Positions 1-16,012 of a stretch of DNA of 64,000 nt are shown in pieces. Made by a program: the position numbers and the translations under genes. Where the stretch lies: IMG/VR virus record IMGVR_UViG_3300037258_000368, positions 2,287 through 66,286 of that record. One strand, written 5' to 3'. Position 1 is the first letter of the stretch. Each line of letters begins with the position of its first letter. Source of the DNA: a virus. The notes under the pieces are model-generated. The model was given only the letters and a program-made list of their open reading frames with translations. It made no database searches and had not been told where the DNA came from.

Positions 1-363
1 ATTCCATGTGGCATCAACCGTCCACGGAGACGAACTCCCGGAGGTCAGCGCTACGGAGGTCATCGAGAATGGGAACAGCCACAGCACAATATCCGGGATA
101 GGCTCGTTCGGGTCCGGGCTCGACCAGACGATCGAACTCCAGTCCTTATAAAGCGGTCGCAATTCTTGGTCGTTCCACGGATCGGGCAGCCAGACGACCT
201 TGCCGTGATCGACGCCGTATTTTGCTTTGAGGAAGCCGGTGACCCAACCGATCTGCTTCGAGGCGTTGTAGTCGGGCTTCGGCAGGCCGAACATATGCCA
301 GTAGCTCGGCGCCTGCCCGATGTCGTTGAGAAGGACGATCTGCGTTCTAGGCGCGCGGATCAT
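1..363 (-). CDS. Partial virion/fibre-type protein, truncated by window start
   Basis: Hand-translated MIRAPRTQIVLLND...LTSGSSSPWTVDATWN; ATGA overlap with the upstream stop; open to position 1. Confidence 0.65.
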   Translation of the reverse strand, partial: MIRAPRTQIVLLNDIGQAPSYWHMFGLPKPDYNASKQIGWVTGFLKAKYGVDHGKVVWLPDPWNDQELRPLYKDWSSIVWSSPDPNEPIPDIVLWLFPFSMTSVALTSGSSSPWTVDATWN

Positions 364-1703
364 GCGCCGTCGCCCAACAGCGTGAACGTAGCGGCCGATC
401 CGGCGTTCGACTTCACCGTGATCGAGATGATCGCGTATTGGCCGAAGGTCTTGGTGTAGCTGTGCGGGTTCGCGTTGAACACCGCGCTCGCCCCCGCCGC
501 GATCGTGACCTGCCCCGATGCCGTCTCCTGCGACACGGCGATGTTGCACCCGGTCGGCAGGCTGTTCGGCACGGTGTACGTCGCTGCCGAGGCGCCGGTC
601 GCCAGGATCATCGTCCCGCAATCGGTCGCCGCAAACGTGTAGGCGCTGCTGCCGGTCCCGCTCTGCGAGGTTACGGTGCCAAGCACCTCACCAAAGGTCT
701 GCGCCCCCGAAAAGGTATTCGTGCCGTTCAGCAGCGGGATCGTCGCGCCGCTCGTGCCGACCGCTTTCCCGTTGAGGGTCGTGCATGTGACGTTGGGCGT
801 CGAGAATGTGCAGTCGCCGCCCAACGTGATCCCGGTGAACGAATTTGAGCTGTTGATCTGTATCTGCCCCGATGAACCGCCCGGCTTTGCCTTTGAATTG
901 AGCGCGGCCATCGAACCGATCGGCGACAGATCGACCACGTAGGTGCCCCCGCCTCCGTTCGTCGAGAGCACCTGGCCGAACACCGCGACCGCGGTCGGCA
1001 CCGTTGACCCTGCATCGTGGCAGTCGCCGGCCGTGGTAGTCGAGACGATCACAAAATCGCCGGCCGTGGTCGCCCCGTCGAAAACGCACGAAGCCTGTCC
1101 GGATATAGCGACAGAGGCATTCCCCGTCGTCCCGCAACTCGTTCCCGTGACGCCGGAGACGCAGATGCCTATCACCGAGCTGGTATCCGTCGTAGCGGCT
1201 TTCTTAACCGTCGCCCCCGTCGTGTAGACCACGAGCTTGCCGGCGGCGGTCCCGGTCGCCCCCTCGTTGACCAGCGTCTCGATCAGCGAGCTGGTGTTGA
1301 GCGTCACAGCCCCACTGCTCGTCGAGATTGGCGTGCCGTTGACCATGAATGTCCCGGAGATATTCACGTCTCCGGTAGACGCAGAGCCGGTCGGTGCCCC
1401 CGATGTCAAACTCGGGGCCGTCACCGCGCCACCCAAAGCTAAAGCCGCCGATCCGGCGCTCGTTGCAATGGCCTGCTGCGCAGCCGAGGTCGAGTTCGCC
1501 CCGTCCGTCGACATGCCGGAACCCGCACTGCAGGGCGCCCCGGCATCGACCAGCTGGCCGAATAGCGTTCCTGCGGCAAGGCAATGCCCAGCGGTGACCG
1601 GCGGAATTTCCCAGAGTTGCGACGGCGGGAGCTGCGCGCGCGCCAAGCCGGCGCCGAATAAACCAAGCACGAGGACCGCGACGAATAGAGAGCGCGCGCG
1701 CAT
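360..1703 (-). CDS. Cys/Gly/Thr-rich head- or tail-fibre-like protein with DUF2190-like segment and signal peptide
   Basis: Start MRARSLFVAV.. after GGAGG RBS and TGATG coupling; VIGICVSG..SVAISGQASCVFDGATTAGD..VFGQVL segment. Confidence 0.7.
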   Translation of the reverse strand: MRARSLFVAVLVLGLFGAGLARAQLPPSQLWEIPPVTAGHCLAAGTLFGQLVDAGAPCSAGSGMSTDGANSTSAAQQAIATSAGSAALALGGAVTAPSLTSGAPTGSASTGDVNISGTFMVNGTPISTSSGAVTLNTSSLIETLVNEGATGTAAGKLVVYTTGATVKKAATTDTSSVIGICVSGVTGTSCGTTGNASVAISGQASCVFDGATTAGDFVIVSTTTAGDCHDAGSTVPTAVAVFGQVLSTNGGGGTYVVDLSPIGSMAALNSKAKPGGSSGQIQINSSNSFTGITLGGDCTFSTPNVTCTTLNGKAVGTSGATIPLLNGTNTFSGAQTFGEVLGTVTSQSGTGSSAYTFAATDCGTMILATGASAATYTVPNSLPTGCNIAVSQETASGQVTIAAGASAVFNANPHSYTKTFGQYAIISITVKSNAGSAATFTLLGDGA

Positions 1704-2368
1704 CACGGCGTGTCCTCCTGGATCTCGATCGTGATGTCGAAAACTGCGCCGGTCGGGAGCGCCGCTCCGTTCATGTTGAGATACACAAACTCCGCGATGC
1801 CGCGCAGCACCGCCGCATTGATATCCAGTTCCCACACGAGTGGGGTGACGCCGAGTCCGGTGCCGTCGGCGCTGAGACACACATGCCCCGCCGCACCAAT
1901 GCCGCCCACTTGTGCCCCAAGGCTGTCGGGGTTGGCCGTGCCGATCGTGGAGACCACTGCGGCGGCCGCAGGGTAAGCCGTGTCGGTTGCGAACGCGGCA
2001 AGCGCGGTGCGCACAAGGTTCGTCGTGTCGGCGGCCGAGCGGCGGATCAGCTGCACCGGCATGTTGCCGGCTGCGGTCGCGACGCCCGTCAGGATGATCC
2101 TGCGGATACGTAGGGTCTTTCCGGCCGCGCCCTGGATTTCGAGGATATCGGTCGGTGTCGCGACTGGCGTGTAGCCGAGGACAGCGTAGCGGTATGTCGG
2201 CTTTACGCCTTCGGCTTGCACCGGCAGCGCGACAAGGCCCGGCGCGAGCGGGAATTTGACGCCGTTTTCATCGGCGAGAACCACGGTCGCGGCTTGGTTC
2301 GGGCCGACCGCGTTGATGTCCATACCAATCGGATTGCCGTCCCGGTCGGTGATCGCAAGAGCGCCCAT
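1703..2368 (-). CDS. Putative virion structural protein (221 aa)
   Basis: Coupled ORF in the structural cluster, beta-rich composition. Confidence 0.7.
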   Translation of the reverse strand: MGALAITDRDGNPIGMDINAVGPNQAATVVLADENGVKFPLAPGLVALPVQAEGVKPTYRYAVLGYTPVATPTDILEIQGAAGKTLRIRRIILTGVATAAGNMPVQLIRRSAADTTNLVRTALAAFATDTAYPAAAAVVSTIGTANPDSLGAQVGGIGAAGHVCLSADGTGLGVTPLVWELDINAAVLRGIAEFVYLNMNGAALPTGAVFDITIEIQEDTP

Positions 2369-2384
2369 AGGTCAGGTTTCCCAA

Positions 2385-2549
2385 TCAGGAGGCGACGAGC
2401 GGCGATTGCGGGACTCCGGTCAGGACGAGGAGACCCCAAGGCGTGAACTGGCTCGGCGTGTTGGCGACCAATCCGGGCAGGTTGATTTGCGGAAAGCCGA
2501 AGATCCCCGGCGACAGTTGCGGGCTCGGCGTCAAGCGGCCGCGGTTCAA
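2385..2549 (-). CDS. Small hypothetical protein (54 aa, TTG start)
   Basis: MNRGRLTPSPQLSPGIFGFP..; GAGGAG RBS; start overlaps upstream stop; fills the gap. Confidence 0.5.
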   Translation of the reverse strand: MNRGRLTPSPQLSPGIFGFPQINLPGLVANTPSQFTPWGLLVLTGVPQSPLVAS

Positions 2550-2905
2550 AGGCTCTCCTCGTCCGAAATCCGCTCGTGATGTGCGCCGACTTCGTGGTCG
2601 AAAAGGGCGACCCTGCTACCGGCCTTCAGGAGGAAGCCTTCATAGAGGCTATCGACGCGCGTCTTGTAGAAGCGCTTCTCACCATAATCGGCGGGATCGG
2701 CTGGCTTGGGCGGGGCGCCCGGCGCCGCTCCGGGCGAGGCGCCTGTCCCATCGGCCGGATTGCTGCCGGCGTTGATGCGCTCGATATGCGTCGCGGTATC
2801 GTACGGGTGCCGCGTCGGCGCCTCGACCGTCGTCGGGCGCCGGCTGCGCGCGTCCATTGACGTTGCCCGTTTCAGGTTTACCGAGTCTTCGATTTCAGCA
2901 GTCAT
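2546..2905 (-). CDS. Hypothetical head-cluster protein (start uncertain)
   Basis: Protein-like C-terminus YKTRVDSLYEGFLLKAGSRVALFDHEVGAHHERI. Confidence 0.55.
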   Translation of the reverse strand: MTAEIEDSVNLKRATSMDARSRRPTTVEAPTRHPYDTATHIERINAGSNPADGTGASPGAAPGAPPKPADPADYGEKRFYKTRVDSLYEGFLLKAGSRVALFDHEVGAHHERISDEESL

Positions 2906-3191
2906 CGGCCATATCCTCGATGGTCTCGATTTGCAATTCGACCCGGCAGGAGGGACCGCCCGGGCCGTCTCTTGTTTCGCGGTCGGTGACACGGCATCGC
3001 GCAACGATGTCGAGGCAATCGCCCCTCTCGCAGTCCGCGATATCCAGATGCAGCTTCGCGAGTTCGACGTGCGTCAGGCAGATGCGCAGGCCGTAAGGGA
3101 AATCCGGCTTGTCCGACATCTTGATCGGCTGCACCGCGTCGAATTTCTCCTCATCGTCGAGTTCCATCGACACGGGTTTGCTGAAGGCCAT
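2895..3191 (-). CDS. Capsid staple-like protein
   Basis: FPYGLRICL..LAKL..RVELQI pattern; GGAG RBS; head-cluster location. Confidence 0.7.
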   Translation of the reverse strand: MAFSKPVSMELDDEEKFDAVQPIKMSDKPDFPYGLRICLTHVELAKLHLDIADCERGDCLDIVARCRVTDRETRDGPGGPSCRVELQIETIEDMADDC

Positions 3192-3239
3192 CGGCCGTCT
3201 CCACAAATGCGAAGGGCGCCCCGAAGGGCGCCCCAATAA

Positions 3240-3671
3240 TCAGGCACCAGCGGCCATCGGTGCAGCAGCGGGAGCGCCGGCGGCGGGCATCGCCGGCACG
3301 GGTGCGGCGACAGGTGCGGGAGCGGGAGGACCGCCGGCAGCGGCGGCGGGCGCAGCGGCGGCGGCAGCGCCCTGCATCGCGGCCATCTCGGCCATGTGGC
3401 GCTGCTCCATGTTGCGGAGCTCCTCGCGCTGGCCGCCGTGCATGTCGCGGCGCGCGTCCTCGTGACGTTTCGCCGTGTTCGCACGCTCGGTGTGATGGCG
3501 CGCGATCATCTCCTTGCTGGGATCGGCGGCGGGCTTATCGCCTTCGGCCTTTGCCTCGGATTTCGATTCGGTGTGCTCTTCCTTGGACGAGCCCTCGGAA
3601 CCTTCCTTTTTGTCGTCATACATCCCGCCATGGCGGGGCTTTTTGGTCTCGGGCTTTTTCTCTTCGGCCAT
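3240..3671 (-). CDS. Charged low-complexity head-cluster protein with N-terminal KPRHGGMYD motif
   Basis: GGAG RBS; motif shared with scaffold C-terminus. Confidence 0.75.
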   Translation of the reverse strand: MAEEKKPETKKPRHGGMYDDKKEGSEGSSKEEHTESKSEAKAEGDKPAADPSKEMIARHHTERANTAKRHEDARRDMHGGQREELRNMEQRHMAEMAAMQGAAAAAAPAAAAGGPPAPAPVAAPVPAMPAAGAPAAAPMAAGA

Positions 3672-3810
3672 TCGATTTGCTCCCTAGTAGAATTGCCGCG
3701 CGGCGGCAGCGATGATGGATCAGCCGCTCATGCGGGTCGCGCTTTAGCGAGATAGAGCGTGCCGCGTCTCGGGGTGGGCCTAGCTGTCGCCGCAAAGGAG
3801 GATGAGAGGG

Positions 3811-4053
3811 ATGGGTGAAAAAAAGAGGCGAGTGCAACTCGGGCCAACCGGACAATTCCCCGGCGGAATGATCCGGCAGGATGATCAGGGTAGCATCAAC
3901 ATCGCTATTTCCGATATGGACAGCCACGGCAACATCCATATCGATTTCGGCACGCCGGTCGCATGGGTTGCGCTTCCAGCGGAGCAGGCCATAAACCTTG
4001 CTCGGCTGCTCTTGCGCAAGGCTGGCGCGAAGAGTGTGGAGATCACGCTGTGA
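3811..4053 (+). CDS. Small hypothetical phage protein (antisense islet)
   Basis: AGGAGG RBS; GPTGQFPGG..DDQG..IDFGTPVAWVALPAEQAINLA resembles a recurring phage family. Confidence 0.75.
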   Translation: MGEKKRRVQLGPTGQFPGGMIRQDDQGSINIAISDMDSHGNIHIDFGTPVAWVALPAEQAINLARLLLRKAGAKSVEITL

Positions 4054-4283
4054 TGGATCAGCTTCGGCACGACAGCGCGGCCTCGATGGAGGTCCGTTTT
4101 CTCCTTACGTCAAACGGCAGAGGCGGACAGCGGGAGATTACCCGTGCCGGATGGTACGTCGTGCGCACCTGCACCTGCCATAATGGCCACGCGATTACGG
4201 AGCCGTTCGATAATCGTGAGCGCGCGGCCCAGGCGCTTGCGGTGCTCGACGATGACGCGCGGCGCTACGCGATCCGCTCGTAA
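4053..4283 (+). CDS. Hypothetical protein
   Basis: TGATG-coupled to the upstream + strand gene. Confidence 0.55.
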   Translation: MDQLRHDSAASMEVRFLLTSNGRGGQREITRAGWYVVRTCTCHNGHAITEPFDNRERAAQALAVLDDDARRYAIRS

Positions 4284-4543
4284 CCGTCCTCGAACTGGCT
4301 GCGGGGCGAGATCGAGCGGTAGCCATCCGGTTTGTAGATCACGAGATAGTCGTCCACGACGGGCATATAGCGGCGCACTACGTCGTGATCGACCGTGATC
4401 GGTCCGAAATCCTCAAAGAGGAGCATCGCGCTACCATCGGCCTGCGGCGCGACGCCGGCAATCTTCAGCGCCCAGACCTCTTTGTGCGAGCGATAGCGCG
4501 GCGGTTCCGCTTCCTTGCCATCCGAGGTCGGAAATAGCGGCAT
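4265..4543 (-). CDS. Small protein with YxxDGYxSxSPxxxFExGY domain
   Basis: MPLFPTS..YLVIYKPDGYRSISPRSQFEDGY; TGATG coupling. Confidence 0.75.
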   Translation of the reverse strand: MPLFPTSDGKEAEPPRYRSHKEVWALKIAGVAPQADGSAMLLFEDFGPITVDHDVVRRYMPVVDDYLVIYKPDGYRSISPRSQFEDGYERIA

Positions 4544-4791
4544 CAGTCGTACATCCCCCCGTGGCGCTTCTTGCCTGCGGCCATCGCATTGAGAGCGAAA
4601 TTGGCTTCCTTGCCGAGTGTGCCGCCGGCGTGTTTTTTCTGCGCGGCGTACTCGCGCGTCGTCTCGCCGGCGGCCGTCGCCTTTGCGGCAAACCGGCCCG
4701 GGTGCTCGGCTGCGCCAGCTTTGATCCAGCCCTTTGACTTTGCCATGCCGGTGCTCCGCGATGCGAGATCGGCGAGGGTGGCGCTCGCCAT
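4543..4791 (-). CDS. Small basic protein ending KKRHGGMYD
   Basis: TGATG coupling at both ends; Lys/Ala-rich. Confidence 0.75.
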   Translation of the reverse strand: MASATLADLASRSTGMAKSKGWIKAGAAEHPGRFAAKATAAGETTREYAAQKKHAGGTLGKEANFALNAMAAGKKRHGGMYD

Positions 4792-4976
4792 CAGTCGTAG
4801 AAGCCGCCGTGCTTCTTGCGCACCGGCTTACCGTCCTTGACGGTCGCCGGCAATTTGCCACCCGGATCGGCGCCCGCGAACTCTTTGCCTACAGCTTGGC
4901 TCACGCCGCCGACACCGCCCTTCTTGGCGGCGGCGGCGAACATAAGCCTGCGCTGCGCTTCCGAAACTGCGGGCAT
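4791..4976 (-). CDS. Small basic protein ending RKKHGGFYD
   Basis: MPAVSEAQRRLMFAAA..VSQAVGKEF pattern; abuts upstream stop. Confidence 0.8.
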   Translation of the reverse strand: MPAVSEAQRRLMFAAAAKKGGVGGVSQAVGKEFAGADPGGKLPATVKDGKPVRKKHGGFYD

Positions 4977-6290
4977 TTACAGTTCGGCCGACGCCTGGAT
5001 ATTCGCGCCGCCGCCGGCGCCAACCAATTCGCAGGCAAAACCGGCCGTGGTCGAGGCGGTCGTGCCTTGAAGCGCGATCGTATCGACGGTATTGCCGATC
5101 ACCGCGTCCTGGATCAGATAGGTCGAGGCGAGTGCAACCGGGGTCGTTGTTTTCGACATCACGGCCCAGGTGCCGACACCTTCGGCCGTGCCGCCGATCG
5201 TGATCGTTGGTGCGACACGCATCGACACCGGCAACTTGATCGCGACATCGCAAATCGTGGCGGTCTCATAGGCGCCGCCCTGGCTGACGATCTTCGAGGC
5301 CGCGGGCTCGTTGATCTGGTAATAATAGCGCTGCTGCAATACCTGCTCTTGCGCAGTGAGCCGTCGCGCGAAGGCTTTGGCGGAAGGCGCCTGCTGGGCG
5401 TTGAGCAGCGTCGCGGTGCCGAGGGTCGTGCCGGCAACCGTGGTCAGAGCCGAATTGCGCACAAGCTGGCAGCCGGCCATCTTGAAGCCATCCGTCGCCG
5501 TGCCGGTACCGACCGGCGTGAAGCCGATCGCGGCGGCTACCTCGGTAGCGCCCGTGGGAATCGGCGCAACGATCGAATAGCGGCCCCAGCTCGTGGTGAT
5601 CGGGACAAGGACGCTCGCATTGATCTGCCCGGCCCAGGCCGTGGTGCCGGCGCCGCCGTGCGCATTGAGGCCGTAGGCGTAATCGGTCGATCCCTCATCG
5701 GTGCCGGTGCCATAGCTGATCGTCATCAGAACCTGGCTGCTGGCGGCCGAGAAGCCGCTGAGCGCCTTCAGATGGCAATCGAACTCGGCGGTCTGTCCCT
5801 GGAATTGCAGGGAATTGTCGCTCTCAACCTCCTGTGCGATCGTCACCGGCACGACACCGGTCAGCGATCCCTTGACGATTTGCAGCGAGTCGAGATAGCC
5901 GGCCGGCGCATCGGCCTGCTGGGTGATCGTCGCCGGCGTCGAGGTGCCTCCCCAAGCGAACCAGCGATCGGCTGTGTAGCCGACATAATAGGTCGCGCTG
6001 GCGAGCGCGACCGAGACGCCACGTTGCCACAAATTCTGCCCGGTCGAGAAGTCACCGCCGATGAGAGCGTTCTCGGGGTTGTTGCCCGGCTGGGTCTGCG
6101 GGTAGTTGCCGAAGAGAGTAGCGGGCATCCACTGGTCGCCGACCGCGGGATTGCCGCCCGGTACGATCTTGACGAGATCGTTCGGCCCGATCGATTGGAC
6201 CCGCGGGGGCGGATAGGATTGGGCCAGAGCAGCAGCGACGGCGCCAGCCAAGAGCGCGGCGGCCGCGAGGCCGACGGGGATTTTCTTCAT
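4977..6290 (-). CDS. Fibre/spike-like protein with carbohydrate-binding-like domain and signal peptide
   Basis: NALIGGDF..LWQRG..YTADRW motif typical of fibre CBM-like domains; N-terminus MKKIPVGLAAAALLAGAVAAALA-Q. Confidence 0.75.
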   Translation of the reverse strand: MKKIPVGLAAAALLAGAVAAALAQSYPPPRVQSIGPNDLVKIVPGGNPAVGDQWMPATLFGNYPQTQPGNNPENALIGGDFSTGQNLWQRGVSVALASATYYVGYTADRWFAWGGTSTPATITQQADAPAGYLDSLQIVKGSLTGVVPVTIAQEVESDNSLQFQGQTAEFDCHLKALSGFSAASSQVLMTISYGTGTDEGSTDYAYGLNAHGGAGTTAWAGQINASVLVPITTSWGRYSIVAPIPTGATEVAAAIGFTPVGTGTATDGFKMAGCQLVRNSALTTVAGTTLGTATLLNAQQAPSAKAFARRLTAQEQVLQQRYYYQINEPAASKIVSQGGAYETATICDVAIKLPVSMRVAPTITIGGTAEGVGTWAVMSKTTTPVALASTYLIQDAVIGNTVDTIALQGTTASTTAGFACELVGAGGGANIQASAEL

Positions 6291-6304
6291 GTGGAAAACT
6301 CCAA

Positions 6305-6357
6305 GGGGGACAAGGGGACATGAGGGGGACAGGGGGGTACATGTCCCCCCATTGTCC
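6305..6357. repeat. GGGGACA direct repeats plus an inverted copy; four G-tracts
   Basis: gggggacaaggggacatgagggggacaggggggtacatgtcccccc, intergenic. Confidence 0.7.
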
Positions 6358-6368
6358 GGACAGCGGGG

Positions 6369-6872
6369 CTAGTAGTGCAAGCGGCAGTAGACCCGGATAT
6401 TCGCCGTGGCTGCCGCACCCTGTCCTGTCGTCAGCGAGAAGTAGATCGTGCGCAGGTCGAATTTCGCGGTCGTGTTGTTGAGGGTCGCAGACAACACGCT
6501 GCCAGCGGCATTGGTGGCCGCAGCGGTCAGGCCCGAGTAGGCCTGGCTGCTTGCCACGATCGCCGTTCCGGCTTTTGCGGGCGCCGGATAAAAACCGCCT
6601 GCCGCGGTGGTCAGCGAGACGCTCGGCGAGGTGATGACGATGGCGTCGATCTCATAAGTCGCGCTTGGGAAAGAGATCGGGATTGGCTGGTCGGCCGTCG
6701 AATTCATATCCGCGCCGCGCAAGGTCCCGCATTGGATGCGAGATGGCGCGTAGCCGCCCCATGGCGCCGTCGGGAATTGCATCTGCGTCTGCGCGCGCGC
6801 GCCGCCGCTCAAGCCGCCGACGAGCGCCAAAATTGCGACACCCGCGAGGGCGCGCCTCAGAAGATTTCGCAT
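6369..6872 (-). CDS. Virion decoration-like protein with signal peptide
   Basis: MRNLLRRALAGVAILALVGGLSGGARA-Q; beta-sandwich-like body ending AATANIRVYC. Confidence 0.7.
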   Translation of the reverse strand: MRNLLRRALAGVAILALVGGLSGGARAQTQMQFPTAPWGGYAPSRIQCGTLRGADMNSTADQPIPISFPSATYEIDAIVITSPSVSLTTAAGGFYPAPAKAGTAIVASSQAYSGLTAAATNAAGSVLSATLNNTTAKFDLRTIYFSLTTGQGAAATANIRVYCRLHY

Positions 6873-6903
6873 GTTGAAGCCCTTTGCATTTGAGACGGCG
6901 GTT

Positions 6904-7332
6904 TCAGCTGACGGCCACCGACAGCGACATTGCCGCCTGCCCGTTCCCGGAAAAGCGCCAATTGACAGTCCCGACTGACAAATCGGTGAAATTGAGGCGG
7001 TAGAGGACGCCCTTTTCGCACTCGCCGGTGGTGAGCGAGACATCGGTGCCCGTTGCCCATACCGCCTGCTGGCCCCCGCCGCCGACGTTGCAGACAATCC
7101 AGGTCGTGCCTCCGTCGAAACTGCGTTCGAGCCGCCCGCTGCCGGTCCAGGCGCCGTTCGGGCCGCCGCTGCCGAAGATGACCAGGTTGAAGACGCCGAA
7201 AATCTCGACGCCGGCGGTATGTCCTGGGGCGGTAAATGGCGCGTTTCCGGCCTGCGCCGACGAAAAGACAAAGTTCGCCTTGTCGCTTGCCGGCGGCGTC
7301 GGAATGACGGGCGGCGTCGCGGGGATGCCCAT
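6904..7332 (-). CDS. Putative virion structural protein
   Basis: WTGSGRLERSFDGGTTW motif; TGATG coupling. Confidence 0.75.
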   Translation of the reverse strand: MGIPATPPVIPTPPASDKANFVFSSAQAGNAPFTAPGHTAGVEIFGVFNLVIFGSGGPNGAWTGSGRLERSFDGGTTWIVCNVGGGGQQAVWATGTDVSLTTGECEKGVLYRLNFTDLSVGTVNWRFSGNGQAAMSLSVAVS

Positions 7333-7751
7333 CAGTCTGCCGGGTTCTCGGCCGCCGCTGCGGCGCCCTGCTCGACGTCCGTCGGCGCGGGCGTTTCACG
7401 TGAAACGACACCGGTGTCGCCCTCGCCGATGCGGGCGACGAGCGCCAGCATCTCGGCCTCCTCGGCTTCGGTGCGGTGCTCATTCTCGCGCAATGCAAGG
7501 AGGCGTTGCTCCTCGGCGGCGTCCAAAGCTGGTTGGGCCGGCGGATCAAGCGGGGTGGCCGGGTCGACCTCAACCTCGACCTGCTTCATCGTCGGCCCGA
7601 CCTGGTGCGGAAGGAGATGCACGATCTCGCCCGCTCGACGGAAGATGCCACCGATAAAGCTCTTCTCGGTCAGCACGTAGGGCTGCGGGACCTCTTCGGG
7701 TGCCGCCGGCGGCTGCCCGCGGTCCTGTTTGCCTCGCGAATCGTCGGACAT
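7332..7751 (-). CDS. Hypothetical acidic head-cluster protein
   Basis: Start MSDDSRG after GAGG RBS. Confidence 0.65.
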   Translation of the reverse strand: MSDDSRGKQDRGQPPAAPEEVPQPYVLTEKSFIGGIFRRAGEIVHLLPHQVGPTMKQVEVEVDPATPLDPPAQPALDAAEEQRLLALRENEHRTEAEEAEMLALVARIGEGDTGVVSRETPAPTDVEQGAAAAAENPAD

Positions 7752-7803
7752 GAGTGGTTCCTCTCTAAAATTCACCTGAACCCCCCATTCAGGTGCAGCG
7801 GTG

Positions 7804-8631
7804 TTATCCGTTATAGGTAGTGGGGCGCGCCGGATCGGCGATCGTGCCAAGGATGTGAATCGGCTTCTGCAGCGCGTCGACCGGGTAGAGTTCGCCCAAT
7901 TCGATCGCGCCGTGGCTGCCCGCACCCTGCCCCGCACCGGTCTCGGGCCTGTTACCATCCTTGCCGATGACTTCGAAGCCGGCGACGAGCGGATCCTTTG
8001 CCGCCGGGGTGACCGAGGCGCCGATCGACTCGCAGAAGAGGCGATAGACCTCGCGGGCCATCTCGTTCTCCGGCCGCATCGCCTGGTTCGGGACGCCCGG
8101 CCATTTGACCCGGCGCGAGCGCTCGACATGATCGTTGGCGACCCAGGTCGGCTTGATCCACGTCTCGCTAAGATAGACCGCGGCCGTGAGGTGATATTCG
8201 GGGACGATGCCCCGTGCGCGCGCATTGAGCAGCAGTTCGACCATGCGTTCGCGGGCGCGCAGGCGCATCGCCAGAACGGCAGGCGCGACCGTGCGCTTGG
8301 CGCCGGGTCTACCCTGGTCGATCAGTTCGTTGATCGAAAGCGCGAGACTTTCGACGAAAGCGCGATCACCGCTGGGGTTCGGGATCTGCGCCGCCGGCTC
8401 GCCGCGCTCGTCGGCGAGTTTGGCGAGCATCGCGGCGACGGCTGCACCAGCTGCAGCGGAGGCTGCGGCGGCGATTGCCGCCTTGACCTCGGGTCGCTCC
8501 ATGAGATTCGAGAGATCGAGCGCCGGCGGTTCATCGAATTGGGCGGCAGCGACGGTTGCACCGCCAGCCAGGAGTGCGGCCTCACGCTCGGCCAATTCGG
8601 CCGCAGCACGTTCGGGGGTATTGCTTCGCAT
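7804..8631 (-). CDS. Hypothetical phage protein (275 aa)
   Basis: Long ORF co-oriented with the head operon. Confidence 0.7.
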   Translation of the reverse strand: MRSNTPERAAAELAEREAALLAGGATVAAAQFDEPPALDLSNLMERPEVKAAIAAAASAAAGAAVAAMLAKLADERGEPAAQIPNPSGDRAFVESLALSINELIDQGRPGAKRTVAPAVLAMRLRARERMVELLLNARARGIVPEYHLTAAVYLSETWIKPTWVANDHVERSRRVKWPGVPNQAMRPENEMAREVYRLFCESIGASVTPAAKDPLVAGFEVIGKDGNRPETGAGQGAGSHGAIELGELYPVDALQKPIHILGTIADPARPTTYNG

Positions 8632-8731
8632 TGAAATACTCGAGCGGTTGTGTCAGAAAAATTCCGGCGCCATTGGGCTGCGTGACACGGGGCCGCGGCG
8701 TGGGGTGCGTCGCGGCCCCAGATCGGCCGGA

Positions 8732-9292
8732 CTAGCTCACGCTGTAATTGCGCTGTGCGTTCTTGATGCTCAGATCGTCGCGATCGAGGGTCACCAGCGC
8801 GTAGGCGATCGTGCCGGCCGAGAGATTGGTGCCGGCTGGGACCTGCATCAGGAGCCGCGCATAACGCGGGCGCAGCGTCGACGGGAATGCCGGTGGCCAG
8901 TCGAACCGCGCGATGATGGCGTTGGCAGGGGCCAGCGCGACAGCCTGCGCCCCGGTCTCTTCGGCGGTGTACCAAGTGTCCGGCTGATAATTGCCCGCCG
9001 CGCCCAGATCGGCCGCGAGCTGGAACGCCAAGTTCCACGTCGCCGCATTGCCGGTGGCAAATGCCGTACCGACCGTGACGGCGAGCAACGGCTTCCTGAC
9101 GCCGATGCCGAAATCCGTTCCGAAGGTGGGAAAGCTGGTGCCGAAGATAATGGGCGGCGCTTCGCCGACGCCGGCGCCCAGAAGGTCGAGAGCGACGCCG
9201 CCAGGAGCGAGAACGATGGGGGCGCCCGCGGCGCCGACCATCGAGAGATTTCCCCCGATCGGCACGAAATTGAGAAGTGCGTCCGTGTACAT
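8732..9292 (-). CDS. Capsid cement protein (Bbp16-like)
   Basis: MYTDALLNF..RYARL..AGTI pattern directly after the major capsid; AAGGA RBS. Confidence 0.8.
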   Translation of the reverse strand: MYTDALLNFVPIGGNLSMVGAAGAPIVLAPGGVALDLLGAGVGEAPPIIFGTSFPTFGTDFGIGVRKPLLAVTVGTAFATGNAATWNLAFQLAADLGAAGNYQPDTWYTAEETGAQAVALAPANAIIARFDWPPAFPSTLRPRYARLLMQVPAGTNLSAGTIAYALVTLDRDDLSIKNAQRNYSVS

Positions 9293-9308
9293 GGGCGGGT
9301 TCCTTTAC

Positions 9309-9336
9309 GAAAAGAAAAAGCCGCCCGGAGGCGGCT
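9309..9336 (-). terminator. Rho-independent terminator after major capsid
   Basis: AGCCGCC-TCCG-GGCGGCT followed by TTTTCTTTTC on the minus strand. Confidence 0.75.
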
Positions 9337-9378
9337 CTTTCATTGATTGCGGGGGCGCGATGCGACGGCGCCGCGGAC

Positions 9379-9405
9379 CTTTAGGTGCTTTAGGTGCTTT
9401 AGGTG
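9379..9405. repeat. 9-bp tandem repeat x3 (ctttaggtg) spanning the capsid stop
   Basis: Minus strand reads ACC TAA AGC ACC TAA AGC ACC TAA. Confidence 0.85.
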
Positions 9406-10442
9406 ACCTGGCCTTCCGTGGTGAGCAGCTGGTCGCTGATGCCGACCTTGATGCCGCGGATGAAGTCGGTCACCCGACCCGCCGCGTCGGTCAGCGACAG
9501 CAGCACGTTGCGGTCGCGCATTCCCTGCACGTCGCACCAATGCCGCCCGGTGCGGCTCATGTACCAGACCGGCCGGATACCGGGCGCGGGCTCATCGGGC
9601 GCGTCGGTCTCGGTGATGCCGCTGGCTTCGCGGCTGAGCGTCGGCGGAAAGAGGACCGCCTCGGCGAAGAGCGCGAACAAATCCGCCGCATTCGGTCCGG
9701 CGAGGCCGGCGGCGGTCACATCGAGGTTTGCGATGCGCACGCCATAGCGCCAATCCTCGACGACGATTCCGGCTTCCTGGCGGAAATAGCTGGTGAGCGC
9801 GCGGAACGGATTGCCGAGCGCATCGAAGGCGGGCCATGTGTCGCCGAGGTTTTCCTGATTGAGGCCGGCTTTCGAGTTGCGCGGGAACAATCCCTTGATC
9901 GTCATATCGCCCCAGCAGATGAGCCAAGCGCTGAGGTTCGAGGAACCGGTGCCGCCGCCGTTGATGACGTTGGAACCGTTGGCGGCCGAGTTGCTGTCGG
10001 TGTTGTAGAACGGCGACAAGCCCATGAATTCGCCGGGCGTCGCGACCGTATTGCCATACCAGAGCGTGTTGCAGACCGTCTGCCCCATGCCCTCGATGAA
10101 GGATACATCCTCGCGATATCGGAAATTCTCGATATCGCCCGAGCGCTCGGCCAGCGTGCGATCGACCTGGCTCCAGCCGACGAGTTCGCCCAAACCAACG
10201 CGGGATTTGGCGGTCGTCGATTTGCCGAACGCGGTTCCGGCATTGATCTGGCGCCATGCACCTGCCGGGATCGAGGTACGATAGACGAATTCGTGCCCCG
10301 TCATTTCCGAGGCTTCCGCCCACGGCATGTCCTTCAGCGGGTCGTTGGTTTGGGACATCAGCTCCGCGATGCGGCGCTGTTTACCCATGGCATCGGTGCG
10401 GCTCGTCAGGTCGAGAAGGGTGGGCCATTGTCCGTTCGCCAT
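9399..10442 (-). CDS. Major capsid protein (BPP-1 Bbp17-like, HK97 fold)
   Basis: PTLLDL..IAELMSQTN..WYGN..EFMGLSP..DWRYGVRIANLD..LLTTE; GGAGG RBS; start at MANGQW. Confidence 0.93.
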   Translation of the reverse strand: MANGQWPTLLDLTSRTDAMGKQRRIAELMSQTNDPLKDMPWAEASEMTGHEFVYRTSIPAGAWRQINAGTAFGKSTTAKSRVGLGELVGWSQVDRTLAERSGDIENFRYREDVSFIEGMGQTVCNTLWYGNTVATPGEFMGLSPFYNTDSNSAANGSNVINGGGTGSSNLSAWLICWGDMTIKGLFPRNSKAGLNQENLGDTWPAFDALGNPFRALTSYFRQEAGIVVEDWRYGVRIANLDVTAAGLAGPNAADLFALFAEAVLFPPTLSREASGITETDAPDEPAPGIRPVWYMSRTGRHWCDVQGMRDRNVLLSLTDAAGRVTDFIRGIKVGISDQLLTTEGQVT

Positions 10443-10687
10443 TTTCTGCCTCCATAAAGACCGCCGCTCGCACAAGCGAGGTGAGCGGCGTTGTTGTTTT
10501 CTGGAGGTCAGCTTTTCGGGTACGCTTCACGCGCTTGGGATGTCCGAATAGCTGACCAAGCCTATTCGCCTCATTCGTGCATGCCTGGGGCGGGTTGATA
10601 GGGGCCGGCGGGACGTGTCGCGGATGGCGCGATCCTGCCGGCTCCGGTTGGGGTGCGCCGATCTGCGACGATCTTGCGACGATCCCT

Positions 10688-11566
10688 TTATTTGTTCGGG
10701 GCGGCGGGTCCCGGGCCGCTGCCGACCGTTTCGTAAAACCCGCCGTGCGCCCCGGCGGATGGGCGCCTGCCATTGTTGGGCGGCGGCTTTGGCGGATCGT
10801 GCATCGGCGCCGGCTCGTCGAAGAGACGTGCCGCGGCGTGGAATACGCGCAATATCTCGGGATGGTCGCCCGCCCCGGTCAGGTCCATTGCGCGATTGAA
10901 GGCTTCGCGGCGCGCGCTCGGTACAAGCATATCGCGCATGCGGGCGATCGCGTTCATCGCGGTCTGATGGCCGGCGCCGCCCAATTCCTCGTCGGCCATA
11001 ACTTCGGTGCGCCAGCCGCGCCGCATCTCGCCGAAGGCTTTGTGTTGGTCGGCGGCAATTCCCTCGGCGTAGCTCTGCATCGCATTGACGTGCATGTCGA
11101 CGAGCTGCTGGGCGCGCGCCTGCGGGGCGAGTTCGGTATTGCCGAGGAGCGCGGTGAATTCGTCGACGCGCTCGGGTTGCAACGTGACGCCTTCGGGCAG
11201 GGTGAAGGCTTCGTATTTGACCGGCTCGGCCGCGCCGACGACGGCGAGTGCGGCCGCCGGATCTGCTATCGGCGGATCGCCGGGCTTTGCCGCTGCCGCC
11301 GGATCGACTGCAGGCTTTGTCGCGAGCGGATCAGCGGCAGTAGCGATGAGGCTCGGCGTGTCGGTGTGGAGCCCGATGGCGGGTTTCGCCTCGCCCGGTG
11401 CGGGTGCTTCCGGGGCAGCCGGCGGCGCTTCGGCCGTCGGGGGGACGCCAGCCGCCGGCGCTGCGGCTGCCTCGGAAACGACTTCGGCCACCGCAGGGGT
11501 GGCCGATTGTTCGGGAACGACAGGGGACGCCGCCGGGGCGCCGCCGGTGTTATCTTCGGGCGGCAA
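10688..11566 (-). CDS. Capsid scaffolding protein (Bbp18-like)
   Basis: Pro/Ala-rich N-terminus, YEAFTLPEG..AQQLVD..W..DEELGG..GAGDHPE; immediately upstream of MCP; TTG start with GAGG. Confidence 0.8.
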   Translation of the reverse strand: MPPEDNTGGAPAASPVVPEQSATPAVAEVVSEAAAAPAAGVPPTAEAPPAAPEAPAPGEAKPAIGLHTDTPSLIATAADPLATKPAVDPAAAAKPGDPPIADPAAALAVVGAAEPVKYEAFTLPEGVTLQPERVDEFTALLGNTELAPQARAQQLVDMHVNAMQSYAEGIAADQHKAFGEMRRGWRTEVMADEELGGAGHQTAMNAIARMRDMLVPSARREAFNRAMDLTGAGDHPEILRVFHAAARLFDEPAPMHDPPKPPPNNGRRPSAGAHGGFYETVGSGPGPAAPNK

Positions 11567-11579
11567 TGGGGAACCTCAC

Positions 11580-11834
11580 ATGACCGATTTAGAAATGGCG
11601 CGTGCCGAAATTTCGGCGCATCTCGTCGACGTTGTTGTTCGCCTGTTCAAGCCGGGCATGAAGACGACGATCGTTGTGCGACGACCGGGCTCGCCCGAGC
11701 GAGAGTTCGTGATTACCAACGACCGGATCGACGACGTTATCGAGTGCCTTTCGCGCCGGCGCGAGGCTGGCGCTGCGGAACAGCAAGCGCCGGATCGTTC
11801 TCCCGCTCCATCAGGAAGACGCCCTCTGGCGTAA
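11580..11834 (+). CDS. Small hypothetical phage protein, antisense within the head operon
   Basis: MTDLEMARAEISAHL..LFKPGMKTTIVVRRPG..VITNDRIDDVIECLSRR. Confidence 0.6.
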   Translation: MTDLEMARAEISAHLVDVVVRLFKPGMKTTIVVRRPGSPEREFVITNDRIDDVIECLSRRREAGAAEQQAPDRSPAPSGRRPLA

Positions 11835-12162
11835 TAATCTGCCAGGATCGCTTTAGTCGTCGCGCAAGTACCTGCTGTCCGAGTTCGTACCAAGTCGCCT
11901 CGGGCTGCGGAAACCCGTTGGGTCCGCATGCAAAGCGCTCTTCATTCGGGTGGCCGGCCTCGAGGATTTCCCAACGCTCGCGCCGCCCAGCTGGCGTGCT
12001 GAAGGCGCGACGAACAATGTCTGCGATCTCTTCCCTGCGCAGCGTCGCACGGGCGCGCGCCCGCTTCAGTGAACGAGGTTCGGCCGCATTGACAGCTTCG
12101 GGCATAGCGGGGTCACCGTCGGAAGGCTCGTCCTCCGGCGTCTCGATGTCGTCATCGACCAT
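11737..12162 (-). CDS. Bbp19-like head-cluster protein
   Basis: AFSTPAGRRERWEILE..TWYELGQQ..MEREN; lies between portal and scaffold. Confidence 0.7.
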   Translation of the reverse strand: MVDDDIETPEDEPSDGDPAMPEAVNAAEPRSLKRARARATLRREEIADIVRRAFSTPAGRRERWEILEAGHPNEERFACGPNGFPQPEATWYELGQQVLARRLKRSWQIITPEGVFLMERENDPALAVPQRQPRAGAKGTR

Positions 12163-12169
12163 ATTGCGA

Positions 12170-12550
12170 TCAGGAGTCTTTCGGCTTGCGCAGTTCCGCG
12201 AGCGCGGTCCAATCGAAGCCGTCCTTGGACGACAGAAGCCCGCCGCGAGTTCTAAACGGATCTCGATCCGGCGGGGATGGTGGCGTGCTCGGTCCTGGCA
12301 TGTGCCAGTTTCCTGGGTCCGGATCGCGCACCGCGTTGTCGAGCACCTCTCGCTGTGCGATGGCTGCGGCGCCGATCAAGTTGATCTTGAAGCCGTTGTC
12401 GTAGGCCGTCAGGTGTCGCACGTCGCCGGTGCGCAGAACGATGGAGATCGACACCGCGCCTATTTCGTCGCGCGCGTAAAGGGCCGTCATCTCGTCGATA
12501 ATCGAAGCCATGCCCCGCTTGAAGCGCAGCGCGCCGTCTTCGTCTGGCAT
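12170..12550 (-). CDS. Hypothetical protein
   Basis: Coupled ORF on the operon strand. Confidence 0.65.
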   Translation of the reverse strand: MPDEDGALRFKRGMASIIDEMTALYARDEIGAVSISIVLRTGDVRHLTAYDNGFKINLIGAAAIAQREVLDNAVRDPDPGNWHMPGPSTPPSPPDRDPFRTRGGLLSSKDGFDWTALAELRKPKDS

Positions 12551-12729
12551 CAGGCGTTGCCCTGCGCCGGCATCACTGCCAGCAGTAGCGCGGCATGCGC
12601 CTCTTCGGCAGTCGCGAACGGCCCGGCGAAGAATTTCATGCCGGGTCGCATCGGAAGGATGTCAGCGCTACCCCGCTCGGCCCAGGCTTCTGGGGTGTAC
12701 CAAATGGATTTCTTGGGCCTGTCAGCCAT
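12550..12729 (-). CDS. Small hypothetical protein (MADRPKKSIWYTPEAW..)
   Basis: TAATG/TGATG coupling on both sides; GGAG RBS. Confidence 0.55.
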   Translation of the reverse strand: MADRPKKSIWYTPEAWAERGSADILPMRPGMKFFAGPFATAEEAHAALLLAVMPAQGNA

Positions 12730-13268
12730 TAGGCGGTTCTCCTCTGATCGCGGAACGCCGGCGGCAGCGCGATCCCGCCGGGCGTGATGACCGAAACCGG
12801 GCGCGTATCGCGGTGTGGACCTGGTCGGACCGGCGGGCGTAGATGCCCAGTTTTACCGGTCGCCATCGTGCGGCGCTGCTCGGCCTTGCGGTGGCACTCG
12901 CGCAAGACGCCGGCGAGCTTCAGAAATAGAGGCCGCGGATAGTGGCCGCGCAGCCAGTTGCCGGCGCGCTTGTGGCACTCGCCCATCATGTGCGCGATTT
13001 CGAGCCAGCCCGGGTCGCCCATGTCGCTCTTGAGCGCCTCGAAGCCGTGGGTGCCGGCAAAGCCGATCGGCGCACCGGCGCCGCCCGCATCATCGCGCCA
13101 ATAAGCCGCCTGCCGCGCCGCGCCCTCGATGAAGCCCAGCTCCTCGATGAGGAGCTGATAGGTCGGCCCACGCATCGGCAGGGTGGCCAGGAGATCGCAA
13201 TGCTCGGCGGCCAGTCGGAAATTCTCGGAGAGGCACGCAAAGATTTCGATCTCGGTAAGCTGGCTCAC
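12729..13268 (-). CDS. Hypothetical phage protein
   Basis: GTGA coupling; protein-like sequence. Confidence 0.7.
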   Translation of the reverse strand: MSQLTEIEIFACLSENFRLAAEHCDLLATLPMRGPTYQLLIEELGFIEGAARQAAYWRDDAGGAGAPIGFAGTHGFEALKSDMGDPGWLEIAHMMGECHKRAGNWLRGHYPRPLFLKLAGVLRECHRKAEQRRTMATGKTGHLRPPVRPGPHRDTRPVSVITPGGIALPPAFRDQRRTA

Positions 13269-14032
13269 CTGTCGCCGCCGATCCAGCGCGACGGCACGAA
13301 GGGACGCTCCTCCGGCGGCAGCGGCTGCGCGGGCAGCGGTACGAGCGGGCCGTCAGGGTCGGCGCCCAGCGCAGCGACGGGCGCATCGATGGACGCGCGA
13401 TGCTGCAGGCTCTCGATCACACGCCATTTTCTGAGCGCCTCCTGATAGCGGAACAGGCGCGCCTGTCGCGACGGGTTCCCCACCATTAGGTAGCGCTCCG
13501 GGACCATAAAGGCTTCGTTGATCTTGCGATCCACCTCGGCCAGCATTTCGGCTGTGACCGGTGGTGCCGGCTCAGGCGGCGCCATGATCATGAGCATCGC
13601 TTCGACCAGCTCCTCGATGATCCCGACCAGCATCATCTTTATCAGTTTTCCGCTCGCGTCCAGCGCATCACGACGTGCGGCGATGGGATAGCACAATGCA
13701 CAGTTCGGGTCGCCGCAGCTTATCGTCTTGCTCTCGTATGTCGGCAAAGCCGCCGTGAATATCGTTGAGCAGACACAGCGCGCGATTCCCGATGCCGGGC
13801 GCTGTATCGAGGCGCCACATTTCGGGCAAGTCATCGTCTCTCCGCGCGCCTTGGCGAGAATGGCGCGCGCCGCGAGCCAGTCTTCGCTAAAATCCCCTGG
13901 GTTTTCTTCCATTTGAGCATCCTGCTCCGGCGAAATGAGCCGAGCCAATGCCTCGTAAAGCTCCGGTGCCGCCGCGATCAGCGTGCTGGTGCTGGGCGCT
14001 CTCGCTACAGTTCTCGTCTTGCTCTCGTTCAT
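13265..14032 (-). CDS. Mosaic accessory protein (LIAAAPEL motif plus Cys clusters)
   Basis: ATGA coupling to portal; LIAAAPELYEAL..ARAILAKARG followed by CPKC and CGDPNCALC. Confidence 0.55.
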   Translation of the reverse strand: MNESKTRTVARAPSTSTLIAAAPELYEALARLISPEQDAQMEENPGDFSEDWLAARAILAKARGETMTCPKCGASIQRPASGIARCVCSTIFTAALPTYESKTISCGDPNCALCYPIAARRDALDASGKLIKMMLVGIIEELVEAMLMIMAPPEPAPPVTAEMLAEVDRKINEAFMVPERYLMVGNPSRQARLFRYQEALRKWRVIESLQHRASIDAPVAALGADPDGPLVPLPAQPLPPEERPFVPSRWIGGDR

Positions 14033-15870: not shown

Positions 15871-16012
15871 CGATCGGGTGCAGGTTGCGGCAGCGCGGGC
15901 AGAGCGCGAGATCGGGGGTGATCGAACGCTTGGGGTGCAGGATCACGCCGAGCATGGCTGCGCTCGCGGCCACCGTCAGGAGGACGATGCCGGCAAGCGC
16001 GAGGATGTTCAT

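Follow-up and report, generated by a model that had tools for sequence, protein, structure and literature searches.

A scaffold-tip peptide recurs at the ends of unrelated small proteins in a podophage head module: a putative capsid-targeting docking label

Results

Four copies of a terminal motif in one head module

The 64,000-nucleotide stretch analyzed here (IMG/VR virus record IMGVR_UViG_3300037258_000368, positions 2,287 to 66,286; hereafter the window) carries a podophage head module of the epsilon15/BPP-1 type on its minus strand, spanning bases 1-16,000. Its G+C content is about 64%, and its closest genome-derived relatives are Acetobacteraceae and Rhizobiales assemblies. In this module the scaffolding protein and three small proteins, named p61, p82 and p143 after their lengths, have in common a short peptide, HGG[FM]Y[DE], referred to as the tag. 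An earlier reading of the letters of the window (the original prediction) had placed this motif at four sites, and when the 64,000 bases were scanned in all six frames it was found at exactly these four, all on the minus strand. Four looser patterns recovered the same four sites and no extra ones. The number of matches to HGG[FM]Y[DE] expected by chance from six-frame residue frequencies is approximately 0.0006, and none was found in 100 triplet shuffles.

The scaffolding protein (10688-11566, minus strand; 292 amino acids) has the tag close to its C-terminal tip, as H274-G-G-F-Y-E279 (10730-10747), that is, at residues 274-279 of 292 and 13 residues short of the C-end. In p61 (4791-4976, minus strand) the tag is encoded by the last six codons (4794-4811), and the protein ends in ...RKKHGGFYD-stop; p82 (4543-4791, minus strand) likewise has it in its last six codons (4546-4563), ending in ...GKKRHGGMYD-stop. 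In p143 (3240-3671, minus strand) the tag is located at the other end of the protein, at residues 14-19 (3615-3632). Synonymous codons vary among these copies (CAC/CAT, GGC/GGG, TTT/TTC, TAC/TAT), as had been noticed before, and the surrounding DNA is dissimilar.

The tag carriers are otherwise unrelated, which also agrees with the original prediction. Comparison of the family alignments of p61, p82, p143 and the gp10-like proteins (described below) with hhalign gave probabilities of 7.3% at most, and the only further BLAST similarity between carriers is Ala/Pro-rich low-complexity sequence. The Ala/Pro-rich C-terminal tail of p143 also resembles the Ala/Pro-rich N-terminal part of the scaffold (BLAST E value of approximately 4e-5 without composition correction), a resemblance that probably reflects composition only.

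The scaffold tip across relatives

The product of 10688-11566 fits the scaffold type by the position of its gene between portal and coat genes, by its helical structure with disordered ends, and by the lack of a catalytic fold among the searches made. It matches phrog_458 (1.5e-19) and BPP-1 Bbp18. An AlphaFold2 model predicts an Ala/Pro-rich disordered N-terminal part, a helical core at residues 131-250 made up of five helices with predicted local distance difference test (pLDDT) values above 90, and a disordered C-terminal tail at residues 251-292 that has no secondary structure and pLDDT values of approximately 50 to 70. The tag lies in this tail, 24 residues past the last predicted helix, and the 10-residue block that contains it has a mean pLDDT of 54. 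No Pfam family, protease or other, was found for the scaffold, and a fold search with the all-helical model returned 121 weak matches to the PDB, none of them at an E value of 0.001 or less. Scaffolds of this family are labelled "protease," "endoprotease" or "peptidase" in phrog_458 and in many deposited genomes (L039, L048, L049, L050, L131, L132 and L134; such handles denote loci of the comparison). This historical label appears to have been inherited from an old similarity note, and the results above suggest that it is wrong.

The relatives compared with the window comprise 38 viral loci, identified by way of the major capsid protein (MCP), together with 8 loci from genomes and 80 from metagenomes. 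A hidden Markov model (HMM) of the scaffold retrieved 102 open reading frames (ORFs) with 90 distinct complete C-terminal tails. Within the last 18 residues, a hydrophobic residue followed by Tyr is present in 74 of these tails and a Tyr in 82, the remaining 8 having LH, LF, MF or KF. Among 45 aligned scaffolds, Y278 is conserved in at least 90%.

The exact HGG form is rare, being found in 1 of the 38 viral relatives (L001, once). This rarity was considered as a refutation of the motif and dropped, since the homologous protein ends of relatives (C-terminal in the scaffold, p61 and p82, N-terminal in p143) hold a broader tag. The broader tag consists of a basic run followed by hydrophobic-Tyr and usually D-H-P-R-S. 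In the clade of the window, two to four Lys or Arg residues are followed by one to four residues of variable identity, then by a hydrophobic one, by Tyr and usually by Asp-His-Pro-Arg-Ser. The motif of the original prediction is thus one local version of a larger pattern. To judge from these alignments, HGG-[F/M]-Y-[D/E] is a derived local form in which the portion past the Tyr-acid pair has been lost or replaced.

Detection of the tag with a scaffold-trained matrix

A position-specific scoring matrix (PSSM) for the tag was derived from scaffold tails alone (37 distinct ones, all from the clade of the window) and was used to scan 64 nonredundant loci from which the scaffolds had been excluded. 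The 291,594 positions of the coding strand gave 41 matches at a threshold of 14 bits and 34 at one of 16 bits, versus none at either threshold in the 243,612 positions of the opposite strand. Nearly all matches lie no more than 18 residues from the C-end or near the N-end of the ORF, and most tags are C-terminal. In the window, the tags of p82, p61 and p143 score 20.0, 15.2 and 11.7 bits, respectively.

Lowering the threshold to 12 bits gave 45 terminal tagged ORFs which, once the tag had been removed, fell into 12 unrelated BLAST families: p61 (n = 11), p143 (n = 11), p82 (n = 8), two unnamed families (n = 5 and n = 3) and seven singletons. The number of carriers per genome ranges from two to five.

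One of the 41 matches is a fifth one in the window, in a 38-amino-acid ORF (2268-2384, minus strand; 20 bits) whose peptide resembles the L001 scaffold tip. This ORF is located in frame behind the stop codon of a conserved 54-amino-acid ORF (2385-2549) and overlaps, in another frame, the start of ORF 1703-2368. No conservation of the peptide was found in L001 or L051. Because it is unconserved and overlaps the start of the next gene, it was set aside as a chance match or the remnant of a lost carrier.

Co-variation of scaffold and carrier tags

Versions of the tag are lineage specific and common to the scaffold and the small proteins of the same genome. One clade (L083, L086 and L113) has Arg-Tyr (R-R-Y) in the scaffold and in p61, p82, p143 or gp10-like proteins, and L075 has Leu-x-Tyr in all four proteins. 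Tyr-Lys is found in L054, L057 and L072, Asn-Pro-Leu ahead of an aromatic residue (N-P-L-[HY]-D) in L022, and Tyr-Asp-Asn-Asp-Arg-Ser-Pro in L018. The small clade to which the window belongs has an aromatic residue ahead of the Tyr, and HGG throughout the four proteins is confined to the window. On an MCP tree built with a quick method, the local versions fall in several separate clades.

The match between scaffold and carriers was assessed by shuffling genome labels among lineages with less than 85% MCP identity. For tags defined with the PSSM (14 lineages), within-genome similarity was 25.8 versus 17.8 ± 1.8 for the shuffles, none of which was as high in 5,000 (shuffle counts here and below are not true probabilities; see Discussion). 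In a second test, the tails were defined solely by homology of the protein bodies and anchored on the last Tyr, which was itself excluded. Over 22 lineages the similarity was 8.8 versus −1.2 ± 1.5 (z of 6.5), and 0 of 10,000 shuffles were as high; with the 13 lineages of the window's clade the count was 1 of 10,000, and with the window left out it was 2 of 10,000. The scaffold of the same genome ranked first in 7 of the 22 lineages and among the top three in 11. The small-protein motif therefore follows the C-terminus of its own scaffold, as the original prediction held it might, with the exceptions given in the Discussion.

Codon identity at identical residues was 45% within genomes (51/113) and 43% between genomes (644/1504). 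This equality, which indicates that recent gene conversion is not the explanation, and the unlike flanks support the earlier view that the tag is conserved at the protein level and not by duplication of DNA.

Small carrier proteins

p61 (61 amino acids; isoelectric point [pI] of 10.1) is composed of a conserved N-terminal module of 45 residues followed by the tagged C-terminus. Homologues were aligned from 21 other loci, and the family corresponds to phrog_16759, for which no function is assigned; none of the 22 members matched a Pfam family. A resemblance to DUF3008 was left unused, being a weak atlas lead only (rank 25, score of 0.88, 14% of members). The module is a widespread domain without a name, with 3,270 library representatives at an E value of 0.001 or less; among the best 150 of these, 66 are 110 amino acids or shorter. 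Ten larger proteins with the module were scanned and contained NUDIX (eight proteins), DUF2213 (six proteins) and an Alt-like ADP-ribosyltransferase (one protein). DUF2213 is named head maturation protease in PHROGs. The module elsewhere thus stands on polyproteins that would be anchored inside proheads, and this domain association fits a role in the head interior for the free-standing tagged form.

p82 (82 amino acids; pI of 10.1) has its ATG overlapping the stop codon of p61 by one base (TGATG). The same stop/start overlap joins p82 to the next ORF (4265-4546), a sign of translational coupling of the three genes. The C-ends of p82 homologues in relatives are tagged, the nearest atlas clusters are viral hypothetical proteins, and a search for longer homologues found none.

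In p143 (143 amino acids), the N-terminal tag is followed by a Lys/Glu-rich linker, a conserved His/Arg-rich helical region and the Ala/Pro-rich tail. Its gene is directly upstream of the gp10-like gene, and its homologues are tagged near the N-end, several of them at residues 3-8. Searches of p61, p82 and p143 against Pfam gave nothing except a subthreshold DEC-1_N match on low-complexity sequence. With respect to charge, the basic pair p61 and p82 (pI of approximately 10) differs from near-neutral p143 and from the acidic gp10-like protein.

gp10-like proteins and known phages

A weak homologue of epsilon15 gp10 and BPP-1 Bbp20 is encoded at 2895-3236 (minus strand), with a likely start at the Met at ORF residue 16. 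It matches the PDB chain of epsilon15 gp10 (3j40_N; E value of 0.00099) and phrog_825, and it scores 24.5 bits against PF21628 ("Gp10-like"), under the cutoff of 27; an HMM built from its relatives reaches epsilon15, BPP-1 and Jess A. The protein of the window has an acidic C-terminal tail without a tag. In the family as a whole, the C-end is tagged in 12 of 28 distinct lineages. The untagged members (16 of 28 lineages) end in a run of Asp/Glu, and a p143-type gene with an N-terminal tag is usually found directly upstream of them, which suggests that the untagged gp10-like protein and the p143-type protein may act as a pair.

Eight deposited relatives were examined, and in all six that have the gene the gp10-like protein ends in the tip of its own scaffold. 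The pairs of scaffold and gp10-like protein are Bbp18 and Bbp20 in BPP-1, gp6 and gp10 in epsilon15, gp48 and gp52 in Caulobacter phage Jess A, gp15 and gp13 in CP2, p09 and p13 in phiV10, where the tip is identical at 7 of 9 residues, and gp07 and gp06 in BcepC6B. For phages AF and Ab31, no gp10-like gene was found in the stretch examined. In several phages the gp10-like gene adjoins the portal gene.

For epsilon15, gp10 is on record from proteomics of infectious virions, an identification called putative in the report that mentions it (PMC9207676). According to the same report, gp10 had originally been chosen for the outer "staple" density of the epsilon15 map because of this proteomic finding, and the reanalyzed density fits a protein of 130 amino acids and not the 111-amino-acid gp10 (PMC9207676). 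At the corresponding genes of epsilon15 (L048, 6971-7363 and 7705-8040), the staple of PDB entry 3j40 was accordingly argued in 2022 to have been built with the gp10 sequence and not with that of the 130-amino-acid gp8 (PMC9207676). A RefSeq note ties gp8 to the BPP-1 cement protein Bbp16. The reassignment leaves gp10 as a reported virion protein without a known place, and if the staple was built with the wrong sequence, the PF21628 name "Gp10-like, major coat protein-like" may mislead. In the BPP-1 head, Bbp17 and Bbp16 are the two abundant proteins, and both are reported as uncleaved; Bbp20 goes unmentioned in the text available from that report (PMC3863775), and a full-text literature search for Bbp20 returned nothing relevant. 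The small tagged proteins are likewise absent from the available body text of the papers on A1002 and PhiXacm4-11.

Discussion

We consider it reasonably probable, from the sequence comparisons above, that the scaffold-tip tag on unrelated miniproteins is a capsid-targeting docking label that works without a protease, and we infer from these comparisons both its binding and the packaging of its carriers. Scaffold C-terminal tips bind the coat protein in P22 and 80alpha. By analogy with the scaffolds of P22, 80alpha and herpesviruses, the docking site of the tag would most likely be on the coat protein. The tag would be a short linear address label, copied from the scaffold tip and placed in an unstructured tail at the free end of the carrier. 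During procapsid assembly the scaffold tip would enter a pocket on some part of the head; the coat protein, at its inner face or its N-arm, is the most likely one. The same pocket would be used by tagged p61, p82 and p143 and, elsewhere, by gp10-like proteins and at least eight further families. Use of the scaffold's pocket by the miniproteins would then lead to their incorporation into the procapsid without a protease, and the carriers would remain inside as the scaffold exits or help to displace it. Since pocket and tag would have to fit each other, each lineage would have its own version of the tag, common to scaffold and cargo. The two basic carriers may bind DNA, and the carrier set may be injected, like the internal proteins of T4. 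The original prediction of a capsid-loading signal is in this way supported in part: what speaks for a label is the predicted disordered terminal tail, the presence on at least 12 unrelated families and the occurrence on virion-reported epsilon15 gp10, and the loading step keeps the standing of a probable reading.

The candidate receptor is most likely, by the same analogy, the MCP of the window (9399-10475, minus strand), which has the HK97 fold and is of the epsilon15 gp7/BPP-1 Bbp17 type (PF20911 "GP7" at 1.2e-88; PDB matches to BPP-1 3j4u_A at 2e-56 and epsilon15 3j40_A at 8e-51). This type of MCP is present in 103 deposited phage records and more than 467 metagenome stretches. Two runs of complex prediction with the MCP (71-row alignment) and p61 (22-row alignment), made without controls, each scored 0.00 where the mark is 0.32; this lends no support, but by the rule of the tool it counts as evidence for neither side. 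An alternative candidate receptor is the portal (14029-15870, minus strand; PF12236 at 2.9e-118). Another possible partner is the small protein encoded upstream of the scaffold gene (11737-12162, minus strand), the positional counterpart of epsilon15 gp5 and Bbp19 (phrog_528 at 2.6e-05; weak BLASTP match to Bbp19 with an E value of 0.007).

Several known systems resemble this arrangement in part. Encapsulins have an HK97-fold shell, and a short terminal cargo-loading peptide on a flexible linker docks to its luminal face. The HK97-fold shell and the short terminal peptide on a flexible linker are also found here, with luminal docking being putative, whereas the peptide sequence differs and encapsulins have no scaffold, portal or DNA, in contrast to the head module of the window with its scaffold and PF12236 portal. 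The closest likeness is with 80alpha and the satellite SaPI1, where the scaffold and CpmB have a common C-terminal helix-and-hook with an RIIK motif, so that CpmB, which carries a copy of the tip, occupies the place on an HK97-fold coat protein where the scaffold docks (PMC5644958). Here too the same C-terminal motif is found on the scaffold and on a second protein. The copy in that system is, however, on a satellite protein that hijacks capsid size, whereas here it is on the phage's own genes and on unrelated families. It is also an amphipathic helix with a hook, while the tag is N- or C-terminal in a predicted unstructured tail; residues 251-292 of the scaffold model are without secondary structure, and the peptide may fold only when bound.

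In T4, the capsid targeting sequence (CTS) of IPI-III and Alt loads proteins into the head by means of a short terminal peptide, as does the N-terminal packaging signal of P1 DarB (PMC3012670; PMC9024508). As with the CTS, where diverse and fast-changing proteins have only a short terminal peptide in common (PMC3012670), the peptide here is found on otherwise unrelated phage proteins (45 ORFs in 12 families). The CTS differs in that it stands at the N-terminus, guides proteins to the scaffolding core and is cut away by the prohead protease. The tag, in contrast, is mostly C-terminal and equals the scaffold tip, and a scan of 20 head-module ORFs with Pfam and PHROGs detected no protease family. 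Finally, the gp10/Bbp20 family (PF21628), of which 2895-3236 is the probable member in the window, carries the tip in epsilon15, phiV10, BPP-1, BcepC6B, Jess A and CP2. In the window and 15 further lineages it has instead an acidic untagged tail, and other small proteins are tagged; doubt has been cast on the published role of gp10 as a "capsid staple" (PMC9207676).

A number of observations weigh against a docking label for cargo. The scaffold of the same genome ranked only 12th, 11th and 11th of 14 in L006, L051 and L054 in the PSSM-defined test and 12th of 22 in L116 in the homology-defined test. Anchoring of the tails was heuristic, and the rows of L075, L083 and L113 are visibly misanchored. 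Moreover, the lineages are related and the scaffold and carrier genes are 4 to 7 kb apart, possibly moving as one module, so that the shuffle counts are not true probabilities. The Tyr tag ends just 18 of the 66 short p61-family representatives among the best 150, and the gp10-like family is untagged, with acidic tails, in 16 of 28 lineages, the window included. T7 gp9, gp6.7 and gp7.3 have no tip in common. Virion evidence among the carriers is limited to epsilon15 gp10 and comes from a paper that calls the identification putative. In the scaffold itself the helical C-terminal domain is also conserved (T230, G231, G233, P236 and E251) and could be what really binds the coat, in which case the tip would be available to another partner, such as the portal, the gp5-like protein or the scaffold core.

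The main rival is one in which docking is kept and the carriers are competitors or helpers of the scaffold that act on release timing, capsid geometry or assembly nucleation and leave with it, in the manner of CpmB but from the phage's own genes, or in which the tag docks on the scaffold core or the portal. The evidence for a shared docking peptide, namely, the PSSM scan and the co-variation, applies equally to this account. The closest solved precedent, CpmB, is a competitor and not cargo (PMC5644958), the T4 targeting sequence leads proteins to the scaffolding core (PMC3012670), and the gp10-like gene is beside the portal gene in several phages. The report of epsilon15 gp10 in mature infectious virions (PMC9207676) indicates, in contrast, that at least one carrier stays. 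Multiple carriers per genome and 12 unrelated, often lineage-specific families also resemble a variable payload and not a fixed assembly machine. We therefore regard the competitor or helper role as rather unlikely, although it is the strongest of the rivals.

The second rival, which the original prediction had itself named, is that the tag is the recognition or cleavage site of a maturation protease, either phage encoded and unrecognised or from the host, by which the ends of the scaffold and the small proteins are trimmed. The coat and scaffold of 80alpha are trimmed by a host protease, and the internal proteins of T4 are trimmed by gp21. As in such protease codes, the motif is common, short and terminal on head-module proteins. 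The historical "protease" label of the scaffold family (phrog_458 and deposited annotations) and the fusion of the p61 module to head maturation proteases elsewhere point in the same direction. In addition, two carriers of the window stop right after Y-D as if they were pretrimmed, while those of relatives run 4 to 9 residues longer. The same two carriers, however, have nothing left to cut off, and the loss of 4 to 9 residues would be without obvious purpose. The lack of a protease family in the 20 head-module ORFs and the all-helical scaffold model without a PDB match also argue against cleavage, as does the report that the BPP-1 coat and cement proteins are uncleaved (PMC3863775). Furthermore, lineage-specific tags would need a fast-evolving phage protease, and none was seen, while a host protease leaves the differing versions among close phages unexplained; a partner encoded by the phage accounts for such versions better than an enzyme of the host. 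This alternative is weakened to the point where we hold it to be distinctly improbable.

The tag could also be a signal for degradation or regulation, for instance a terminal degron read by host proteases or chaperones, through which scaffold and small late proteins would be removed at a fixed time; capsid targeting would then play no part. A terminal, disordered stretch that passes from a basic run to hydrophobic and aromatic residues is typical of degrons, and the tag works at either end. Host machinery would not, however, impose lineage-specific versions matched between scaffold and carrier, the tip is kept in 82 of 90 scaffolds with hosts from several phyla, and one carrier (epsilon15 gp10) is reported in virions, which makes this explanation very improbable. 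A by-product at the DNA level, whether of gene conversion or of a signal that serves ribosome binding or coupling at the next gene, is hardly credible: the GGN-GGN codons of p61 and p82 do lie 9 to 14 bases ahead of the next start codon, but the scaffold and p143 copies precede no start codon, the tags of relatives are 4 to 17 codons ahead of the stop, and the comparison of codons and flanks largely refutes it.

A docking label may also be part of a wider address-label system, an extension that we put forward as tentative. In such a system a Tyr-tip at either end would load a small protein through the scaffold's coat pocket, and the protein would be retained when the scaffold exits and delivered with the DNA. 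The payload would comprise fast-changing basic DNA binders, epsilon15 gp10 and possibly antidefence factors. Co-evolution of tag and pocket would keep co-infecting relatives from cross-loading, and the tag could be used for packaging foreign proteins. A literature search, mostly outside subscription journals and supplements, found no description of the tag in print. A docking label would provide a testable rule for which proteins ride in the capsid of a large and widespread podophage family and a possible explanation for epsilon15 gp10, which is virion reported and whose shell position has been withdrawn. With a short transferable peptide of this kind, particles of the BPP-1 or epsilon15 type could be filled with reporters or enzymes, and the lineage-specific versions are natural swap experiments for receptor mapping.

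Neighboring genes

The ORF in the position of the cement protein, p186 (8732-9292), has no sequence match to Bbp16 and gave only a weak match to a nodavirus capsid protein (E value of 0.0023). The product of 7332-7754 (minus strand) had no family match in the Pfam and PHROGs scans and, by eye, seems to have an N-terminal stretch in common with epsilon15 gp9, Jess A gp45 and Ab31 gp09. Three further minus-strand ORFs of the structural module (4977-6290, 6369-6794 and 360-1880) had no match to a Pfam or PHROG family of known function. Judged from the translations alone, each of them begins with a hydrophobic stretch followed by A-x-A, which resembles a signal peptide.

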